A stretch of DNA of 61,017 nucleotides from a virus: the IMG/VR virus record IMGVR_UViG_3300002854_000002, positions 1-61,017 of that record; one strand, 5' to 3'. Position numbers and translations under genes: made by a program. Under the pieces are notes generated by a model, which ran no database searches, was not told the origin of the DNA, and was given only the letters and a program-made list of their open reading frames with translations. Positions 2,742 through 21,368 of this stretch are shown piece by piece. Each line of letters starts with the position of its first letter. Within the stretch, counting starts at the first letter, position 1.

Positions 2742-2980
2742 TTCGCTCATTTACGAATTTCCAGTTCGCTGAATCGGCGAATATTGACCGCAGATACCTA
2801 CAAAATCGTCGACCGTAACCCTCTCGTAAATTTAACGACGATTTACCGTTTCCCCCCTCCGGACGCATAAATACACCGGAAAGGACGTAGCGGCGGCAAA
2901 TCGACGTTAATTACACGTAAATAACACGGCACGGGAGGCAGCGGCAGAGTGAGAACTTAAAACGGGAGGTGAGCGTAGGG

Positions 2981-3064
2981 ATGACGCAGGGACCGGTTAA
3001 AACGTGTTTCTTCTATGTACTTAAAATCTTTAAGATCTTAAAGGGATTTAAAATCTTATTTTAA
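2981..3064 (+). CDS. Possible 27-aa peptide MTQGPVKTCFFYVLKIFKILKGFKILF
   Basis: SD GGGAGGTG upstream of ATG 2981. The ORF coincides with a 9-bp-periodic AT-rich DNA repeat, so it may be a DNA element instead. Confidence 0.25.
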   Translation: MTQGPVKTCFFYVLKIFKILKGFKILF

Positions 3065-3383
3065 ATCTTATATTCGCGGAACGTTAGTGACGCTTTCGAG
3101 GGGAGGTTTTCCCCGAAGAAATGATCTTATACCGCTAGATAACGTTATATTCACGTTGATTCACTATGAATCGTCGGGAATTAAGCGTTAATAAGGGCCT
3201 GCCGCGTCATAATCGTCGCTACGCTCCATTCCTTGCCCCATCCGTGAAAGAAAGAGCGGCACGTATGGAATAGTGTAGGGATTAATTAACGCGTATTCTC
3301 TAACGATAAAGCCCGTATATACCGCTAATCCTCGCCATGTTCACGTTGAGTTTTCAGAACTCGTCGCGAACGATCGGAACCTA

Positions 3384-3443
3384 TACGATCCTGCTACGAC
3401 TCTACAACGTAATTGGAAATCGCAAACATGTACGATCCTGCTA
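3384..3443 (+). repeat. 13-mer TACGATCCTGCTA, copies 2 and 3 (47 bp apart)
   Basis: Exact repeats at 3384-3396 and 3431-3443, 50-110 bp upstream of the CDS starting at 3493. Candidate regulator binding sites. Confidence 0.8.
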
Positions 3444-3492
3444 CGCGGTTAATACGCTAGTTAAACGAATTATAAACGAGGAGTTGACGCGA

Positions 3493-3894
3493 ATGAATAT
3501 CGCCGTAACTGTAACGCCAGATTTCCGCATAATAACGGACGAACGGAATTATATCGTCAAGGAACGCTATTTCACCGATCCGACGAAAGCGCCCGGCTAT
3601 AAAGCGGTTGAAGGAACGCCATCTCCGCCTCTACGTGAAACGTGGGATCATCCGCAGCATCAGCATTATTACTCGTTGACGGCGGCAGGTCTGAGTACGG
3701 CTATATCGTTCATCATCGGACGGACTTGTGGTAGGGATGCGGCGACGTTGGCGGAATTGCTCGCGGAATATAATGCGGAATCTACGCGGTTGAGAGCGTT
3801 GGTTGAGCAAGCGTTGACCGGAACGGAGGTGGCGGCGAATGGCAGCGGAAAAGAAACCACGGAAGATTACGAAGGTCCCCAAGAAACCGGCTAA
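3493..3894 (+). CDS. Hypothetical protein (133 aa)
   Basis: ATG 3493 preceded by GAGGAG with 9-nt spacing. The track ORF start at 3337 lies in repeat-containing noncoding DNA. Confidence 0.55.
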   Translation: MNIAVTVTPDFRIITDERNYIVKERYFTDPTKAPGYKAVEGTPSPPLRETWDHPQHQHYYSLTAAGLSTAISFIIGRTCGRDAATLAELLAEYNAESTRLRALVEQALTGTEVAANGSGKETTEDYEGPQETG

Positions 3895-14891: not shown

Positions 14892-16985
14892 TTGGCAAAG
14901 TTAAACGTAGAAACTGTACCGGCTGTAAGCGTAATGATCGAGGGCGTTGAATACCGTAAGGTTGAACGGGCAGCTAAGGCGGGCGATATCGTTAAAATGG
15001 TTGCCACGTCAGCTGACGATGACGTAACGATCGGAGGCTTCTACTACGTTGACCGCGTCGACTCGTGCGGGGACGCGCATATCACCGGCGATGAAGGCGG
15101 TGATTTCGATACCGTCGGCGATACGCTGGAAGTCTACGAGAAAGTAGCGGAAGAGAATGCGGAGACAGCACCGCGCCGGCTTACCGTTGGGGATTACGCG
15201 AAAGTCGTTTCTGAACGTGCTAGCCGCTCGTCCTCGCATCGTCACGAAGTAGGATCGGTAGTTAAGATCGTGATTGATGATAAGTCAGCGCTACCATATA
15301 AATGCGAGAAAGCTGACGGAACTCGCGGCTGTTACATTTACGAAGACGAGATGGAGCCAGCGACGGAAGCCGAGTTCCTGGCGCAGAAGAAGCCGCAGGA
15401 CTCATCGTTTAAGTCCGGTGATGTCGTTCGTAGTAAAACGGGTTCTCCAACGTGGACGACAACGTTAAAGGAACGCGATCCACGAATGGACGGAACTGAG
15501 CACGGTAAAGCGTGGATGCATACGCACGACAGCGGATGGATCGGCGAGAATCAGTTCGAAAAGGTTACGGAAGAGGTTCCGGAAACAACGAAACCGACTG
15601 AGCCGGCTGCGATTAAAACGGAACCCTACGTCATCCACGACGGAAAAGTCTACGTTAAGGAAACGCGCACGGCGAGAGTCGGCGAGGTTATTACGCCACT
15701 AAAACGCGAGCGTTACGTAACCGTGGGGGGAACGTACGAAGTCACGACTAGATCGCCGCATCACGTTCACTTTACGGACGATGAAGGCGACCGCTGGCAT
15801 ATTGCTGACGGAGACTACGCCGTACTCGTACCGGTCCCGACGGAGCAACGCAAGGCTGAATCCGGCGACCGCATCGTTGTAATTTCGGTTCATCACGAAG
15901 GAATCGTCGTAGGCGAGACGTTGACAGCTAGCTCCGTAGACAGTGAAGGCATAGTCATCACGGTTAAGGAACGCAATATTCCGGGATTTATTTTTTACAA
16001 CGGAAGCCGCGTAGGGAAGGAATACGTTGTGTTGGGGGACACTTCGAAGCCGGCGCGCTTAACGGTAGGTGATTACGCGAAAGTCGTTGAGGATGCGGCG
16101 CATTACGAAATCGGCGAGATTATCCGCATCACGGAAGACGACGGTACTCGCGTTCCTTACATGGGGGAGCGTGCTAGCGACGGTACAATTGGCGGCTATA
16201 TTACGCAGACCAAAGTCGTACCGGCAACACGTGAGGAGTTCGAAGCCCGCCGCGCTGAAGCAGCCGAGCCTGCGCGTCTTAAAGTCGGTGATTACGCCCG
16301 AGTTGCGAAAGCTTACGGAGGCCATTTCGCAAAAGTTGGCGATATCTTAAAAGTGTGGGACATCGTAACGTACGGAGATAATCATATCCGCTGCGAAAAA
16401 CTGGACGGTTCACGTAAAGGTAACGATTACTTCTACGATGACGAACTTGTCCGTGCTACTGACGAAGAGATTGCCGCCGCTAAGGAAGCCGCTGATCCAC
16501 GCAATCAATTCGCAGTCGGCGATAAAGTGCGATTGATTAGCGGAGGCAGAGCGCATCCTCTGCGCGGGTATCAAAACGGCCAGATGTACACCGTTGAAGA
16601 CCCGAAGTTCTCCGGTCACCGGAACGAACGAATTAAGATCGTTGGAGGCGACCAGCGTACTGCATTCGCTAAACCGGAGCAGCTCGTTAAAGTTAGCGCT
16701 GAAGAGATCGCTGCAGAGTCGGCGAAGGCTAAATGGGCCGCGATCGGGCGTAAAGTCAACGAGTATAAAACGGGCGATATCGTACGAATCACTGCGGATA
16801 GATCGGCTGCAGGCGTTGTAACTGGCGAGATTGCCGAAGTGAAGTCGTCAGAGTCTGGAATCGTAAACGAAGGCGTACGTTTGACGAAGATAAATCCTAG
16901 CGGGAGTAATTCGTGGGTAGCCGTTAGTGATGTTGAACTCGTTACGCCGGTTGAGCAACGTTTCGATACACCGCGAAGCTGCTAG
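14892..16985 (+). CDS. Tandem-repeat protein, about 9 small beta-barrel (SH3/Tudor/KOW-like) modules (697 aa)
   Basis: Recurrent 55-70-aa units begin with (R)L.VGDYAKV / VGD.V.V. An exact 18-nt DNA repeat GATTACGCGAAAGTCGTT occurs at 15192-15209 and 16071-16088. TTG start with AAGGGAG upstream. Confidence 0.7.
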   Translation: MAKLNVETVPAVSVMIEGVEYRKVERAAKAGDIVKMVATSADDDVTIGGFYYVDRVDSCGDAHITGDEGGDFDTVGDTLEVYEKVAEENAETAPRRLTVGDYAKVVSERASRSSSHRHEVGSVVKIVIDDKSALPYKCEKADGTRGCYIYEDEMEPATEAEFLAQKKPQDSSFKSGDVVRSKTGSPTWTTTLKERDPRMDGTEHGKAWMHTHDSGWIGENQFEKVTEEVPETTKPTEPAAIKTEPYVIHDGKVYVKETRTARVGEVITPLKRERYVTVGGTYEVTTRSPHHVHFTDDEGDRWHIADGDYAVLVPVPTEQRKAESGDRIVVISVHHEGIVVGETLTASSVDSEGIVITVKERNIPGFIFYNGSRVGKEYVVLGDTSKPARLTVGDYAKVVEDAAHYEIGEIIRITEDDGTRVPYMGERASDGTIGGYITQTKVVPATREEFEARRAEAAEPARLKVGDYARVAKAYGGHFAKVGDILKVWDIVTYGDNHIRCEKLDGSRKGNDYFYDDELVRATDEEIAAAKEAADPRNQFAVGDKVRLISGGRAHPLRGYQNGQMYTVEDPKFSGHRNERIKIVGGDQRTAFAKPEQLVKVSAEEIAAESAKAKWAAIGRKVNEYKTGDIVRITADRSAAGVVTGEIAEVKSSESGIVNEGVRLTKINPSGSNSWVAVSDVELVTPVEQRFDTPRSC

Positions 16986-16997
16986 GGGGCGGTTCTG

Positions 16998-18776
16998 ATC
17001 GACGTAAAACTGACGCTAAACACACGTGTTAAAGACGCTGTACGACGTAAGACGGCGGCTATTCCGGAAACAGCGGCCGAAGCATTTGTGAGAATCGGCG
17101 CGATGGCACTCTCGGATAAGGAGCGCGCACAGTACGTAGAAGCTCGCCAAGCCTACTCAGACGGACGAATTGGTAACGTTCGATCTGATAACGCTAAATG
17201 GACGAAGGGCGACGTACTGGCGGCAGGCGCGCGCTTATTACGAGAGAAGGCGGAGTCAATCCGGAGGGAGCGTATGGCGGAAGTCGTACGCTCCAAGCCC
17301 GCCAATTATCACGTATTAACGAACGATTCCGAGTTGCCCGCGTTTATCGAAAGACTCCGCGAAGAGTGTCGTAGACAAACCGCCGAGTGGACGGACCGAT
17401 TCCGCATACTCGGCGTTGATACAATGACGGCCGGCGACTTCGAAGGAACCGGGATCGATACGTACATCGATTTATCGATCGGCTACAGCGTGTGGTTGCC
17501 GTTGCTCGACGAAGGCTATTATCTCGCGTACGGTCACGTTGATATGCGCGGCGAAGATGGCTTCGAGTTTCTAACGGAAGAGTCAGCGTTCAAGGAGTCT
17601 GATCCTCAGCTTACGCGTTCGAAAGTATTAGCGGCAATTATCCCGTACTTATCGCGGCCGAATCACGGCAAGACGTTCCATATGGGATCGGCTCGCTACG
17701 ATTTACACGTCGCGGATAAAGACGGCTACGAGATTCGCGGCTGCGTTTGGGATACGTTGGACGCCATGAATTTAATGAACGAACACGAACCAGCATACGG
17801 ATTGAAGCCGTTGATTGCGAAGTACGGTCCGGCTTTCGGGATTAACGGTCCGATCGTTACCTTCGAAGATCTATTCGGCCCGCGCTCGCCGGCTCCGTTT
17901 AATACGGAACTCGTCGGCATCTACGCAATCAACGACGTTAAATACGGATGGTCGCTGTTCGAATGGCAGTTCGCGCAAATGGGAAAAGCGCCGAGCGCTA
18001 ACGGAAATGGCCGGCTCCTCGAATGCTACGCGTTGATCGATTCGAAGCTGCCGGAGACCGACGTATTCATGGCACGTTGCGGATTCGAAATCGATACAGA
18101 CGGATTGGCGCGACTGGCAGCGGAGTTTACGCCGAAGTTGGAGGCGGCCCGCGCGGAGGTCATCGAATCGTACGGAATTGATGCGGCCTTTGTACGGAAA
18201 ATGGATCGCGCCCTTCACAGCGCTAAAGTTACGGAATGGATCGGTAAGCAAGGCTCTCGTATCGCCCGTAGGCGTGAGCAATTAACGAAGCATCGTGCCA
18301 TTATTGCGGACTGTGAAGAGCGCGGTAAGACGGATACGAAGAAATACACGGAAGCCGCTGCGAAACTGGCGGAGTTGGAGGCGGACGTACTAGCGCCAGC
18401 CGACGAGGAACATGCGCCGCTTTTTACGGAAGATTTTTCGATTACGAACGGCAACCATCTCGCGTATCTCATTTACGATCATCTCGGAATCCGTGACCGG
18501 ACGCCGCAATTCAAACGCGGCAAGACGCGCTCTACGGCGGCCGACGTCCTGGACGCGTACTACGAAGAGGAAGAGGCACTAAAGCCGCTAGCGACGGTTG
18601 CGGCATACGAGAAACTGCTTAATACGTACGTGACGAAGGTACCGGCGGCGCTCGAAGGTGATGGGCGGCTGCATACGGAGTTTAAGGCGGGCGGCACGTC
18701 AACGGGGCGCTATAGCAGCGCGGGCTATCGTGGGCGGCCGATCGATATATTAGCGGAATTTGAAACGGAGGGGTAA
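16998..18776 (+). CDS. Family A DNA polymerase, N-terminal piece (3'-5' exonuclease plus first part of the polymerase domain)
   Basis: Ends at ...LHTEFKAGGTSTGRYSS followed by an 18-aa tail. Canonical starts are GTG 17088 or ATG 17103, neither with an SD. ATC 16998 lies 8 nt after AGGGGG. Confidence 0.8.
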   Translation: MDVKLTLNTRVKDAVRRKTAAIPETAAEAFVRIGAMALSDKERAQYVEARQAYSDGRIGNVRSDNAKWTKGDVLAAGARLLREKAESIRRERMAEVVRSKPANYHVLTNDSELPAFIERLREECRRQTAEWTDRFRILGVDTMTAGDFEGTGIDTYIDLSIGYSVWLPLLDEGYYLAYGHVDMRGEDGFEFLTEESAFKESDPQLTRSKVLAAIIPYLSRPNHGKTFHMGSARYDLHVADKDGYEIRGCVWDTLDAMNLMNEHEPAYGLKPLIAKYGPAFGINGPIVTFEDLFGPRSPAPFNTELVGIYAINDVKYGWSLFEWQFAQMGKAPSANGNGRLLECYALIDSKLPETDVFMARCGFEIDTDGLARLAAEFTPKLEAARAEVIESYGIDAAFVRKMDRALHSAKVTEWIGKQGSRIARRREQLTKHRAIIADCEERGKTDTKKYTEAAAKLAELEADVLAPADEEHAPLFTEDFSITNGNHLAYLIYDHLGIRDRTPQFKRGKTRSTAADVLDAYYEEEEALKPLATVAAYEKLLNTYVTKVPAALEGDGRLHTEFKAGGTSTGRYSSAGYRGRPIDILAEFETEG

Positions 18777-18778
18777 AA

Positions 18779-18937
18779 GTGGCAAAAGTTGTAGAAACGA
18801 ATGTTCCGAAGGATATCGAGTTGACGATCAAGCTAAACGTAGAGGAAATCGGTGTACTAACGCGGGCTATGGGGCGGCACGTTGAGGGCTACGAGTTGTT
18901 CAGATTCTTTGACCGTCTTTACGAACAGTATCGCTAA
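18779..18937 (+). CDS. 52-aa ORF inside the polymerase split
   Basis: GTG 18779 lies 3 nt after the upstream stop, with SD GGAGGGG. Its TAA overlaps the ATG of the downstream polymerase piece (TAATG). Confidence 0.45.
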   Translation: MAKVVETNVPKDIELTIKLNVEEIGVLTRAMGRHVEGYELFRFFDRLYEQYR

Positions 18938-20019
18938 TGCTGACGATAACTGACACCAATTACCACGCTATCGTCCGCAAGCTCATCGCCGACGAGCGCA
19001 AGGTTCCGAAGGGTACGAATCTTCAGAACATGCCGAGCAAAGGTGGCGGCGTCCTCGTCCGTAATCAATTCGTTCCGCGCGCCGGCTTTACGTTCGTCGG
19101 CGCTGACCTCGGCCAAATCGAACCGCGAATCATGGCGCACATCATGTGGACAGTATACGGAGACAACTCCATGCGTCAGATTTTCGTCGACGGCACGGAC
19201 TTGTATACGACTATGGCGATGATGACGTTTAGTTTGGCGGAAGAGTTTTGCGTAGATAAAGCGTACGATCCGACCGGCACGTTTAAGCCGCGTTCTCTCA
19301 TGAAGACCGGAGTACTCGCGGTCAGTTACGATCAGTCACCGCGTTCCTTCGCTAAGAAGATGAACGTAACGGACGAGGTAGCTGCGATGTTCTTCGAAAA
19401 CTTCGACCGTACATTCCCGTCGTTTAAGGCGATGGTAGCCGACATTCGTGACGCGATGAGACTAAGCGGTTATGTTGAAACGTTATACGGACGCAAACGG
19501 CGTTTCCCGGATTACAAGAGCGTGGCTGCAGCGGCCGCCAAGAACGAACAGCGCCTAATCCGGCTATACACGGAGCGCAAGCAGATCAACGCGAAAACAG
19601 CGCCAACGCCGCGCGATCAACAGCGATTAATAGCGTTACAGGACGAAATCGACGTTCTCGCGGAAAAACGCGGCCTTATCGGCTATTGGGAACGCGCGGC
19701 ATTTAACGCGGTCATTCAAGGGACCGGCGCGGATATCCTGAAGATGAACGGGAATCGAAACGCGCGGATATGCAAGGAACGCGGATGGGAATTTAATGCG
19801 TCGATCCACGATGAAATCAAGAACAGCGTGCCGAATGACGACCTTACGCCGGCAACGATCGAGCTTATCGACGAAATCATGACGAAGACGGCCGAGCTGA
19901 GCGTTCCGTTGGTTACGGATATCGTAATCGAGCCGCGTTGGATGATGGAGTATGGGCCGGACGAGTGGGATTACGTTAACTGCCGGCCGAAAGCGGAGTT
20001 CGCGAATAAATATGTATAG
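18937..20019 (+). CDS. Family A DNA polymerase, C-terminal piece (motifs A, B, C)
   Basis: GTNLQNMP, ADLGQIEPRIMAH (motif A), RSLMKTGVLAVSYD (motif B), SIHDEI (motif C). Confidence 0.9.
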   Translation: MLTITDTNYHAIVRKLIADERKVPKGTNLQNMPSKGGGVLVRNQFVPRAGFTFVGADLGQIEPRIMAHIMWTVYGDNSMRQIFVDGTDLYTTMAMMTFSLAEEFCVDKAYDPTGTFKPRSLMKTGVLAVSYDQSPRSFAKKMNVTDEVAAMFFENFDRTFPSFKAMVADIRDAMRLSGYVETLYGRKRRFPDYKSVAAAAAKNEQRLIRLYTERKQINAKTAPTPRDQQRLIALQDEIDVLAEKRGLIGYWERAAFNAVIQGTGADILKMNGNRNARICKERGWEFNASIHDEIKNSVPNDDLTPATIELIDEIMTKTAELSVPLVTDIVIEPRWMMEYGPDEWDYVNCRPKAEFANKYV

Positions 20020-20039
20020 AAAAACGAGGAGGCGGACGT

Positions 20040-20309
20040 ATGAAAATTACGGAGATTCACAATATCGGCGGAGATGACGATTACGAATACTGCGGAAAGG
20101 GTTCGATCACGGTTACAGTCGAGGACGACGCAGGCAATCGTAAAAGCGCCGACATCAGCGCGGGCGAGCCGGAGGATGCGGTATTCTTCCGCGATTTGAA
20201 CGGTGCTTACAATATCGCTGACATCGTTAAACTAGCGTACGAAGCCGGTAAGCGAGGCGAGGAAATGACGTACGAGTTTCGGGACGATAACGAAGAGGAG
20301 GCGGTTTAA
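20040..20309 (+). CDS. Acidic hypothetical protein (89 aa)
   Basis: Intact ORF with SD GAGGAGG. Confidence 0.55.
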   Translation: MKITEIHNIGGDDDYEYCGKGSITVTVEDDAGNRKSADISAGEPEDAVFFRDLNGAYNIADIVKLAYEAGKRGEEMTYEFRDDNEEEAV

Positions 20310-21368
20310 ATTAGCGTATTCACACGCATTGGAAACGCAGATCAAACGCAAACGGACCAAATCGCGGCTGACTTTACGGAATATCTCAACGCATGGCACT
20401 CGCAGCCGGAAACGTACGACGATGCTTTAGACGCGCAGATTCATCGGTGGTATGCGGACATCCTTACGGACAAATCGCGTAAAGTGTGGCCGCCGCGTGA
20501 CATACCGTACTTCTCGCCATCATCCGCGAATAGTTGTCCACGCGAACTTTACGAGAAGATCCGTAAAGCCAAGCGCGATAAGTCGCTCACTTCGCCGCAC
20601 CAAGGCCGCTGGCGCTCGATCGGAACCGCCATTGGCGACGTAATACAGCGAGATCTATTGTTCGCGGAGAAGCATCTTGACTCCGAAGCGATCGGTAATC
20701 AAGTATTTATGTTCGAGCGTAACGAACGCGGTGAGCCGATGTTTGAGAACTTCGCAAAGAAGAACGCCATCTTTACGCATCGCGGTAAAACGTTCTCTAT
20801 CTCCGGAACATGTGACGGCATCATGCGCTATGTATCGGAGGACGGTGAGGTTATACGCGTCGGTGTCGAAGTTAAGTCGAAGCAAACTACGTCCGCTAAG
20901 ACGTCAGAGTATTCAACGCGTAACGGCCCAGGCGCTGACCACGTCAAACAATGCGTATGTTATTCGCTTATGTACGGTACGGTCGATGAGCCAATTGACT
21001 ATTACATTATCCTTCACGTTAATGCGTCAAAAAAGGCATGGCAAATGAGCGCAGAGGATTACGCCAAGACGCCAGATATTAAGGCGTTCTGCTTCGAAAT
21101 AACGGACGAGATGCGGCACGGCGTTCTCGATTACTTTGCGGACGTCCTCGACGCGATAGAAAAGAACGATCCGCCTGCGCTAGATATCGGTAAGTTTACT
21201 TTTAACAACTACAAACGTGCGTGTGCGGCCGGTTTATCCGATGAGGAATACGCGGCCTTACAACGCCAAGTTGACGCAATACAACGCAGCGGATTGAAGG
21301 ATTTCGAGAAGCGTAATTATGCGGAAGCATTCGAACAATTAACGGAGTTACGGAAGGGGATCGCGTAA
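20310..21368 (+). CDS. PD-(D/E)XK (RecB/Cas4/YqaJ-like) exonuclease, apparent ATT start
   Basis: CDGI...VGVEVKS (D...E.K) and QCVCY (QxxxY). 58 sense codons are open between the upstream TAA and the first canonical start (GTG 20484). ATT 20310 lies 8 nt after GAGGAGG. Confidence 0.65.
   Translation: MSVFTRIGNADQTQTDQIAADFTEYLNAWHSQPETYDDALDAQIHRWYADILTDKSRKVWPPRDIPYFSPSSANSCPRELYEKIRKAKRDKSLTSPHQGRWRSIGTAIGDVIQRDLLFAEKHLDSEAIGNQVFMFERNERGEPMFENFAKKNAIFTHRGKTFSISGTCDGIMRYVSEDGEVIRVGVEVKSKQTTSAKTSEYSTRNGPGADHVKQCVCYSLMYGTVDEPIDYYIILHVNASKKAWQMSAEDYAKTPDIKAFCFEITDEMRHGVLDYFADVLDAIEKNDPPALDIGKFTFNNYKRACAAGLSDEEYAALQRQVDAIQRSGLKDFEKRNYAEAFEQLTELRKGIA

Follow-up and report, generated by a model that had tools for sequence, protein, structure and literature searches.

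How can a phage rely on a replicative DNA polymerase whose gene is broken inside the TGRxSS/NLQN motif, with a further reading frame lodged in the break? The question is raised by the IMG/VR record IMGVR_UViG_3300002854_000002, a viral DNA of 61,017 nucleotides that was analysed over its whole length (hereafter the window) and that encodes a family A DNA polymerase as two neighbouring pieces separated by a small open reading frame (ORF) of 52 amino acids. The initial annotation, drawn from the sequence alone, had left two explanations side by side: expression of the polymerase from genes-in-pieces whose translation is coupled, or a gene interrupted by a small self-splicing intron of the kind known from the Bacillus phage SPO1. 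The comparative analysis described below bears out the former. The window very probably carries a naturally split, genes-in-pieces family A DNA polymerase that involves neither RNA nor protein splicing and whose two chains would assemble non-covalently. No close relative examined lacks this split, purifying selection acts on both pieces, and the extra residues bordering the break, here named the tail (end of piece 1) and the head (beginning of piece 2), are coding.

A family A polymerase gene in two pieces

Three closely packed ORFs follow each other on the + strand of the window: polymerase piece 1 (17103-18776, 557 amino acids from the ATG at 17103, with an alternative GTG start at 17088), the 52-amino-acid ORF (18779-18937) and polymerase piece 2 (18937-20019, 360 amino acids). 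Piece 1 comprises the N-terminal region, an exonuclease-like region and the beginning of the polymerase domain. It runs up to ...TSTGRYSSAG, of which the TGRYSSAG codons (18702-18725) specify its last canonical family A residues, equivalent to residues 666-673 of E. coli DNA polymerase I (Pol I); the arginine of TGR is R668 there. The clade-specific tail YRGRPIDILAEFETEG comes next (18726-18776 with the stop; consensus GYxGRPIDILxEF) and is terminated by a TAA at 18774-18776. The final codons of piece 1 (T-E-G) contain a Shine-Dalgarno sequence, GGAGGGG (18767-18773), for the 52-amino-acid ORF, which starts with a GTG at 18779, two bases after the stop of piece 1. Its own TAA (18935-18937) overlaps the ATG of piece 2 (18937-18939), forming a TAATG stop-start overlap at 18935-18939, and no Shine-Dalgarno sequence is visible immediately 5' of this ATG. 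Piece 2 opens with the clade-specific head MLTITDTNYHAIVRKLIADERKVPKG (18937-19014; consensus TDxNYHxIVRKLIxxxxKVPKG), the residues after the initial (M) being LTITDTNYHAIVR, and continues with TNLQNMP, motif A (DLGQIEPR), motif B and motif C (HDE). Nearly every base between the two halves of the canonical motif falls inside an ORF. The arrangement of stop, Shine-Dalgarno sequence with GTG, and TAATG restart is as the initial annotation had described it, and so is the position of the split, since the Pfam and Klentaq alignments break exactly there.

The assignment to family A holds on both sides of the cut. The Pfam DNA_pol_A profile (PF00476) is matched at positions 16-124 by piece 1 (E=5.6e-11) and at positions 126-380 by piece 2 (E=1.7e-41), and both pieces jointly cover the whole model. 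Klentaq aligns through TGRLSSSD with piece 1 and from SSDPNLQN with piece 2, which puts the break in this very motif; in the numbering of E. coli Pol I the split separates positions 673 and 674, where the TGRxSS/xNLQN hairpin has its tip. In the PDB, the pieces match the sequences of Taq, Bst and Klenow best. The PHROGs library holds a separate family for each polymerase piece, and piece 1 matches PHROG 12241 with E=4.8e-177. Once concatenated, the pieces supply catalytic motifs A, B and C as well as TGRxSS/NLQN; among 12 concatenated relatives, no or almost no variation is seen in TGRYSS, TNLQN, DLGQIEPR, K680...Y688 and H848-D849-E850.

Relatives carrying the split

At 90% identity, the split is shared by more than 100 clusters for each piece, from Paenibacillus, Brevibacillus and Bacillus phages as well as from 60-70 kb plasmid records. 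In a collection of 5.8 billion proteins, the best 120 matches of piece 2 are all 318-392 amino acids long, and 119 of the best 120 matches of piece 1 are of piece size (432-622 amino acids). The host genera among the matches are Paenibacillus, Brevibacillus, Bacillus, Neobacillus, Cytobacillus and Terribacillus. The split point is the same in all 11 IMG/VR loci, in 7 out of 7 GTDB genome loci and in 4 out of 4 metagenome contigs. The closest phages, Halcyone, Heath, Scottie, Unity, Tripp, C7Cdelta, Ash and Ley, display ~68% nucleotide identity, and 13 records of isolated P. larvae Halcyonevirus phages annotate two polymerase genes with a hypothetical gene between them. For its clade the split is conserved and ordinary; NCBI records of cultured phages already list two polymerase genes. 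This distribution points to an old, conserved split that viable isolated phages carry, so that neither faulty assembly nor a pseudogene of recent date can account for it.

Database records file some relatives with the split polymerase as plasmids, 60-70 kb in size, from Paenibacillus and from the Bacillus cereus group (CP062261, CP040784, NC_010182 and AP022646), and a 69 kb contig in P. planticolens (locus L028) is labelled 'Circ'. The clade probably includes phage-plasmids.

Constraint on the tail and the head

The ratio of non-synonymous to synonymous differences per site (pN/pS), computed by the Nei-Gojobori method over 11 loci, is 0.18 for the tail (pS 0.74) and 0.22 for the head (pS 0.66), beside 0.31 and 0.21 for the flanking polymerase core. 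The synonymous differences of tail, head and flanking core, 0.63-0.74, are close to saturation. The consensus of both peptides is kept in all 14 loci compared, including a group that is only ~55% identical, and the start codon of piece 2 is always located 3-9 residues ahead of the head motif. Low pN/pS values combined with near-saturated synonymous sites argue that the tail and the head are translated, functionally constrained peptides, and that their codons are incompatible with intron RNA. They had at first been described as non-conserved: they are indeed absent from canonical family A polymerases, but strongly conserved within the phage clade.

The reading frame of piece 1 relative to that of piece 2 differs among loci. 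In loci L010-L012, separate ribosome-binding sites precede piece 2 and the gene located next to piece 1, and a GC-rich hairpin with a T-run is found right after the piece 1 stop in L011 (1584-1620) and L012 (624-660). In these Bacillus cereus-group elements it looks like an intrinsic terminator between the polymerase halves. Varying frames, terminator-like hairpins and own ribosome-binding sites together identify the pieces as separate translation units and exclude a conserved recoding or bypass mechanism.

Contiguous relatives and history of the split

Contiguous relatives are rare. They keep the tail and the head as a loop of 37-39 residues, and more distant relatives have a loop of 11-22 residues. 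The contiguous protein P0224 (946 amino acids), found in identical form on contigs of four metagenome samples, continues from tail to head in one frame, and its junction reads ...TGRYSSSSYNARPIDILEGFTE-VTDDNYFEIVKRLVTDDSKVKKGVNLQN. An exhaustive search of representatives added further contiguous relatives: P0242 and P0243 possess 37-residue loops carrying the head motif, P0245-P0247 loops of 17-22 residues, and P0250 and P0251 loops of about 11-12 residues, while FA70 and PK2 exhibit the canonical 3 residues at this position. The graded loop lengths indicate that the cut happened inside an already expanded loop. Tail and head are a lineage-specific expansion of the hairpin tip, in the middle of which the gene has been cut.

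This history bears on two ideas of the initial annotation. Alignment to contiguous homologues had been put forward as a way to define the inserted segment; such homologues do exist, but they retain the tail and the head as a loop instead of lacking them. It had also been noticed that deleting 289 nucleotides would restore the motif. The arithmetic is right, as deletion of 18725-19013 or 18726-19014 yields TGRYSSAGTNLQNMP in frame, but natural contiguous relatives keep tail plus head as an in-frame loop. Judged by these proteins, the deletion recreates no natural form of the gene and the restoration idea is misleading.

In a neighbour-joining tree of the C-terminal half (100 bootstraps), all split forms together with P0224 and P0242 are monophyletic, with P0243 outside (100/100). 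P0224 lies amid split members (99/100) and P0242 is placed within group B (84/100). The tree fits either one fission followed by re-fusions, or repeated fissions. Since contiguous forms are nested among split ones, the split state appears to be reversible, the direction of change between the two forms being read from a distance tree of one half of the protein.

To note, a gene for an HNH_3 plus AP2 endonuclease (L016 3368-3895) overlaps the 3' end of the contiguous P0224 gene. In Clostridium phage vB_CtyS-FA70 (L015 2100-3100), the polymerase is contiguous at TGRYSSSNPNMQNIP and is broken inside motif A (GKDLS / QIEPR) by an interruption of ~0.8 kb with an I-HmuI-like HNH ORF. Rfam gave no match to this interruption at E<=1; it is probably an intron.

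Returning to the window, the three ORFs would be co-transcribed, as no promoter-like or terminator-like pattern was found by a scan of the + strand from 16800 to 20500. Piece 1 would be translated to its own stop at 18776, the Shine-Dalgarno sequence inside its last codons would drive the 52-amino-acid cassette ORF, and piece 2 would be started by termination-reinitiation at TAATG. The two polypeptides would then associate into one polymerase, with the former loop halves probably helping the docking.

A variable cassette slot between the pieces

The segment between the pieces forms a slot whose occupant varies even among the nearest relatives, with polymerases 84-87% identical. At least 12 unrelated cassettes and one empty slot have been recorded among relatives, and the gap ranges from none to ~2 kb. 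Whereas the window harbors a 52-amino-acid orphan ORF, Halcyone, Tripp and L004 carry a DUF7296 protein of 105-110 amino acids; the DUF7296 cassettes (L001 3062-3379, L002 3062-3394 and L004 3181-3498) share a conserved CPCCG motif. The slot of L007 contains an N6/N4 DNA methylase (2818-3507, Pfam E=2.9e-26), that of L020 the Type I Thoeris inhibitor Tad3 (2081-2473, Pfam E=2.6e-37), and that of L025, from Paenibacillus sp. SI92, an HNH_3 endonuclease (2498-2998). A small membrane peptide is encoded in L005, L021, L029 and L030, and several unrelated small ORFs in L003/L023/L026, L009/L022, L006, L008, L013, L028 and L031. The slot is empty in L027, from Paenibacillus cisolokensis (2960-3020), where the piece 1 stop overlaps the GTG of piece 2 and ~135 nucleotides are extra. 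Piece 1 of this locus extends as ...EFETEGDEPPWD up to its stop, and the piece 2 GTG lies within those final codons, in another frame. This empty slot may have arisen by loss of a cassette not long ago, or else a fused gene may have undergone a shift of one base.

The borders of the slot are more regular. On the left it usually begins at the piece 1 stop, with a Shine-Dalgarno sequence in the last piece 1 codons; on the right it ends at the piece 2 start, usually overlapped by the cassette stop. Most of the 11 group-A loci, regardless of their cassette, have the string ACGGAGG(G/A) plus stop, with a start codon 1-4 nucleotides further on. L006 is an exception among them, its cassette start overlapping the piece 1 stop.

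The 52-amino-acid ORF belongs to no family in Pfam or PHROGs, and a search of the 5.8 billion proteins returned no homologue besides itself; a weak similarity with the L013 cassette was observed (31% over 32 amino acids). Its codon-usage score is 0.296 per codon, compared to 0.232 +/- 0.095 for real genes of the window, and is matched by 0 out of 2000 out-of-frame windows. On this codon usage it is probably a real gene.

Slots L010-L012 hold a repeat protein of 370-523 amino acids, homologous to the product of the window gene at 14892-16985, so that the gene order around the split differs between subclades. In the window this gene is located just upstream of the polymerase on the + strand, and encodes a protein of 697 amino acids with repeated KxGDxV / SH3-like modules and the C-terminus ...ELVTPVEQRFD, for which Pfam gave no match.

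As judged from the family matches of Tad3 in L020 and of the methylase in L007, the slot carries counter-defence genes. Unrelated accessory genes are most likely exchanged through it by recombination in the conserved polymerase flanks, sometimes with homing endonucleases. With one HNH gene in the slot of L025 and another directly after P0224, a homing-endonuclease origin of the fission is plausible but unproven. A bolder idea is that the slot is a maintained integration platform, the split being kept by selection for gene exchange and not as a neutral scar of homing-endonuclease invasion at site 674; we consider this possible but rather doubtful. The loop cut would then open a slot whose translation is coupled and which is expressed along with the replication genes, the conserved flanks of an essential gene would serve as homology arms for exchange, and Bacillales phages and phage-plasmids would swap Tad3, methylase, DUF7296 proteins and small orphans such as the 52-amino-acid ORF.

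Alternative explanations

Several points weigh against a split polymerase assembled from two chains. The physical assembly of the halves, and the role that the tail and the head may play in it, are deduced from sequence comparison. In the AlphaFold2 model of the concatenated pieces, which has a mean pLDDT (predicted local distance difference test) of 78.8, the value drops below 50 at residues 505-588, covering TGRYSS, tail, head and NLQN, and the only helix within the junction, 566-575, is in the head. Structural support for a tail-head interaction was not obtained from this model, which neither supports nor contradicts tail/head docking. The nesting of contiguous among split forms comes from a neighbour-joining tree of the C-terminal half alone, which recombination could distort. 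Two other points concern introns. One in-frame U...G splice is arithmetically possible, with the 5' exon ending at T18726, the intron ending at G19012 and a product, TGRYSSAGCTNLQN, with a 4-residue spacer, although the deletions that restore canonical spacing follow G or C, not U; splice-site rules alone exclude no intron. In addition, a negative Rfam result is only moderately informative: the SPO1 intron, which is established by experiment and was run as positive control with the same settings, gave a partial RF00028 match (25.6 bits, E=5.6e-4) that falls below the gathering threshold, and the FA70 interruption was missed.

Could the products of the two genes no longer form a polymerase at all? 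Piece 1 would then act alone, for example as an exonuclease or a DNA-binding protein, and piece 2 would have another role or none. There is a precedent in phage Pf-WMP3, of which exon 1 alone displayed exonuclease activity without synthesis (PMC3428280), and relatives of the window also possess a separate DEDDh exonuclease gene. Yet the polymerase motifs are strictly conserved on either side of the cut across the clade, the pieces are always neighbours in the same order, and re-fused contiguous forms occur within the clade, all of which makes such a loss of function very unlikely.

A small self-splicing group I (or II) intron of ~289 nucleotides, the removal of which would restore TGRYSSAGTNLQNMP as in SPO1, is suggested by the position of the split, within one codon of the insertion site 674 of SPO1, SP82, Bastille and Pf-WMP3, and by the stop that the insert supplies shortly after the exon. 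The covariance-model search proposed by the initial annotation did not reveal one: Rfam gave no match in the whole window at gathering thresholds, no group I/II match (no RF00028) but a single chance snoRNA match in 18500-19250 at E<=10, and no match in the Halcyone and Tripp loci at E<=1. The junction RNA (18700-19040) is no more stable than its dinucleotide shuffles (z=+2.0). The intervening DNA is unrelated among 25 loci, leaving no conserved RNA core, and the gap size goes from ORF overlap up to ~2 kb among relatives; the empty L027 slot, with only ~135 nucleotides extra relative to the canonical motif, is too short for a ribozyme. Bastillevirinae polymerase introns require 350 +/- 108 non-coding bases (PMC11878797), whereas nearly all bases here are in ORFs. 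Finally, the ends of the putative intron are under purifying selection at the protein level, with synonymous sites near saturation, and the same tail and head are translated in contiguous relatives. The locus thus exhibits neither a covariance-model core, nor a stable conserved RNA structure, nor freedom from protein constraint, and the self-splicing intron of the initial annotation has to be given up as highly improbable.

Equally hard to credit is a single polypeptide, whether made by ribosomes that bypass, hop or shift frame across the gap (recoding) or joined through the tail and the head by protein trans-splicing. The ORFs are indeed packed very tightly, and conserved peptides at new termini are what split-intein halves would display. 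Recoding is however difficult to reconcile with piece frames that differ among relatives and with gaps from none to ~2 kb with translated genes inside. As for trans-splicing, the 16 residues of the tail and the 25 of the head amount to 41, far below the size of a Hint fold; the tail has Y as its first residue instead of C, S or A, KG instead of HN closes the head ahead of T, and the contiguous P0224 protein retains both peptides. A split intein was rejected on the grounds of terminal residues and combined size.

A decaying pseudogene, or an ORF pair created by a sequencing or assembly frameshift, might be invoked because the interruption hits the most conserved motif of the gene and because L027 resembles two overlapping frames with nothing between them, but it has next to no chance of being correct, as the same architecture is found in more than 25 independent loci, sequenced isolated phages included, both halves have pN/pS values of ~0.2-0.3 with invariant catalytic residues, and the interruption is a gene-like ORF of 160 nucleotides, no single-base error.

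Significance and comparison with known systems

The Halcyonevirus polymerase pair is listed in a table of one comparative genomics paper, the text of which otherwise passes over both the polymerase and any splitting of a gene, and no analysis as a split enzyme was found in it (PMC6070908). Newly described here, as far as found, are the conserved tail and head originating from an expanded loop, the apparent reversibility of the split, its coincidence with intron site 674, and a hypervariable slot with counter-defence genes. A replicative family A polymerase would, by this split, tolerate a permanent break in its most conserved DNA-contacting hairpin, provided that the tip first grew into a loop. 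This would provide a second natural case, after the ribonucleotide reductase of Aeromonas phage Aeh1, for asking how fragmented essential enzymes reassemble, and it links this question to a site in phage polymerase genes that is a classic hot spot for the homing of introns. In practical terms, annotation pipelines should join the two "DNA polymerase" genes as one enzyme, and the gap is a defined place in which to seek new small phage accessory or anti-defence genes, a Thoeris inhibitor being already present in one relative. If they do mediate assembly, the tail and head peptides may be useful as natural docking elements for split enzymes.

The Halcyonevirus phages share with the window the split, the tail, the head and the gene order (Halcyone gp59/gp60/gp61; Tripp 65/66/67), but their cassette is the DUF7296 protein of 105-110 amino acids instead of the 52-amino-acid ORF.

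Site 674 is where the group I introns of SPO1, SP82, Bastille and Pf-WMP3 reside; phiL7 has its own at 676 (PMC3428280). In the SPO1 record, exon 1 ends with TGRLSSNEP and exon 2 starts with NAQQ, the intron lying between P674 and N675. Gene family, site (within one or two codons) and Bacillota phages as carriers are common to both situations. The likeness to SPO1 pointed out by the initial annotation is therefore valid for the position, one codon apart, but does not extend to the mechanism: SPO1-type introns act as self-splicing ribozymes and restore one mRNA, while the locus of the window shows no sign of a ribozyme, be it in signal or structure, its extra flanking codons are translated and under selection, and what they enclose is not conserved.

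Split phage polymerases have been described elsewhere, in an uncultured marine cyanophage lineage and a Synechococcus WH8016 island (bioRxiv 10.1101/325100) and in jumbo phages/chimalliviruses (PMC7824862, PMC13648687). They too make a phage replicative polymerase from two genes. They belong, however, to other lineages, some with another polymerase family, and no claim of a 673/674 split, of conserved tail/head peptides or of a variable slot was found in these three reports.

In the genes-in-pieces ribonucleotide reductase of Aeromonas phage Aeh1 (nrdA-a / mobE / nrdA-b), activity depends on the new terminal tails (Crona et al. 2011, PMC3045599). There as here, an essential replication-related gene is divided into two ORFs with a gene between them, no splicing and extra terminal tails, and in the window the adjacent halves are under selection and meet at a conserved site. 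An HNH homing endonuclease in the gap, as in Aeh1, is present in the relative L025 only; the gap of the window contains instead the orphan ORF, with no family match, and relatives hold at least 12 unrelated occupants. The tails of Aeh1 are unique sequence made by the insertion, whereas those of the polymerase pre-exist as one loop in contiguous relatives, and the enzyme is here a family A polymerase. The Aeh1 nrdA/mobE system is the closest functional precedent for the split polymerase of the window.

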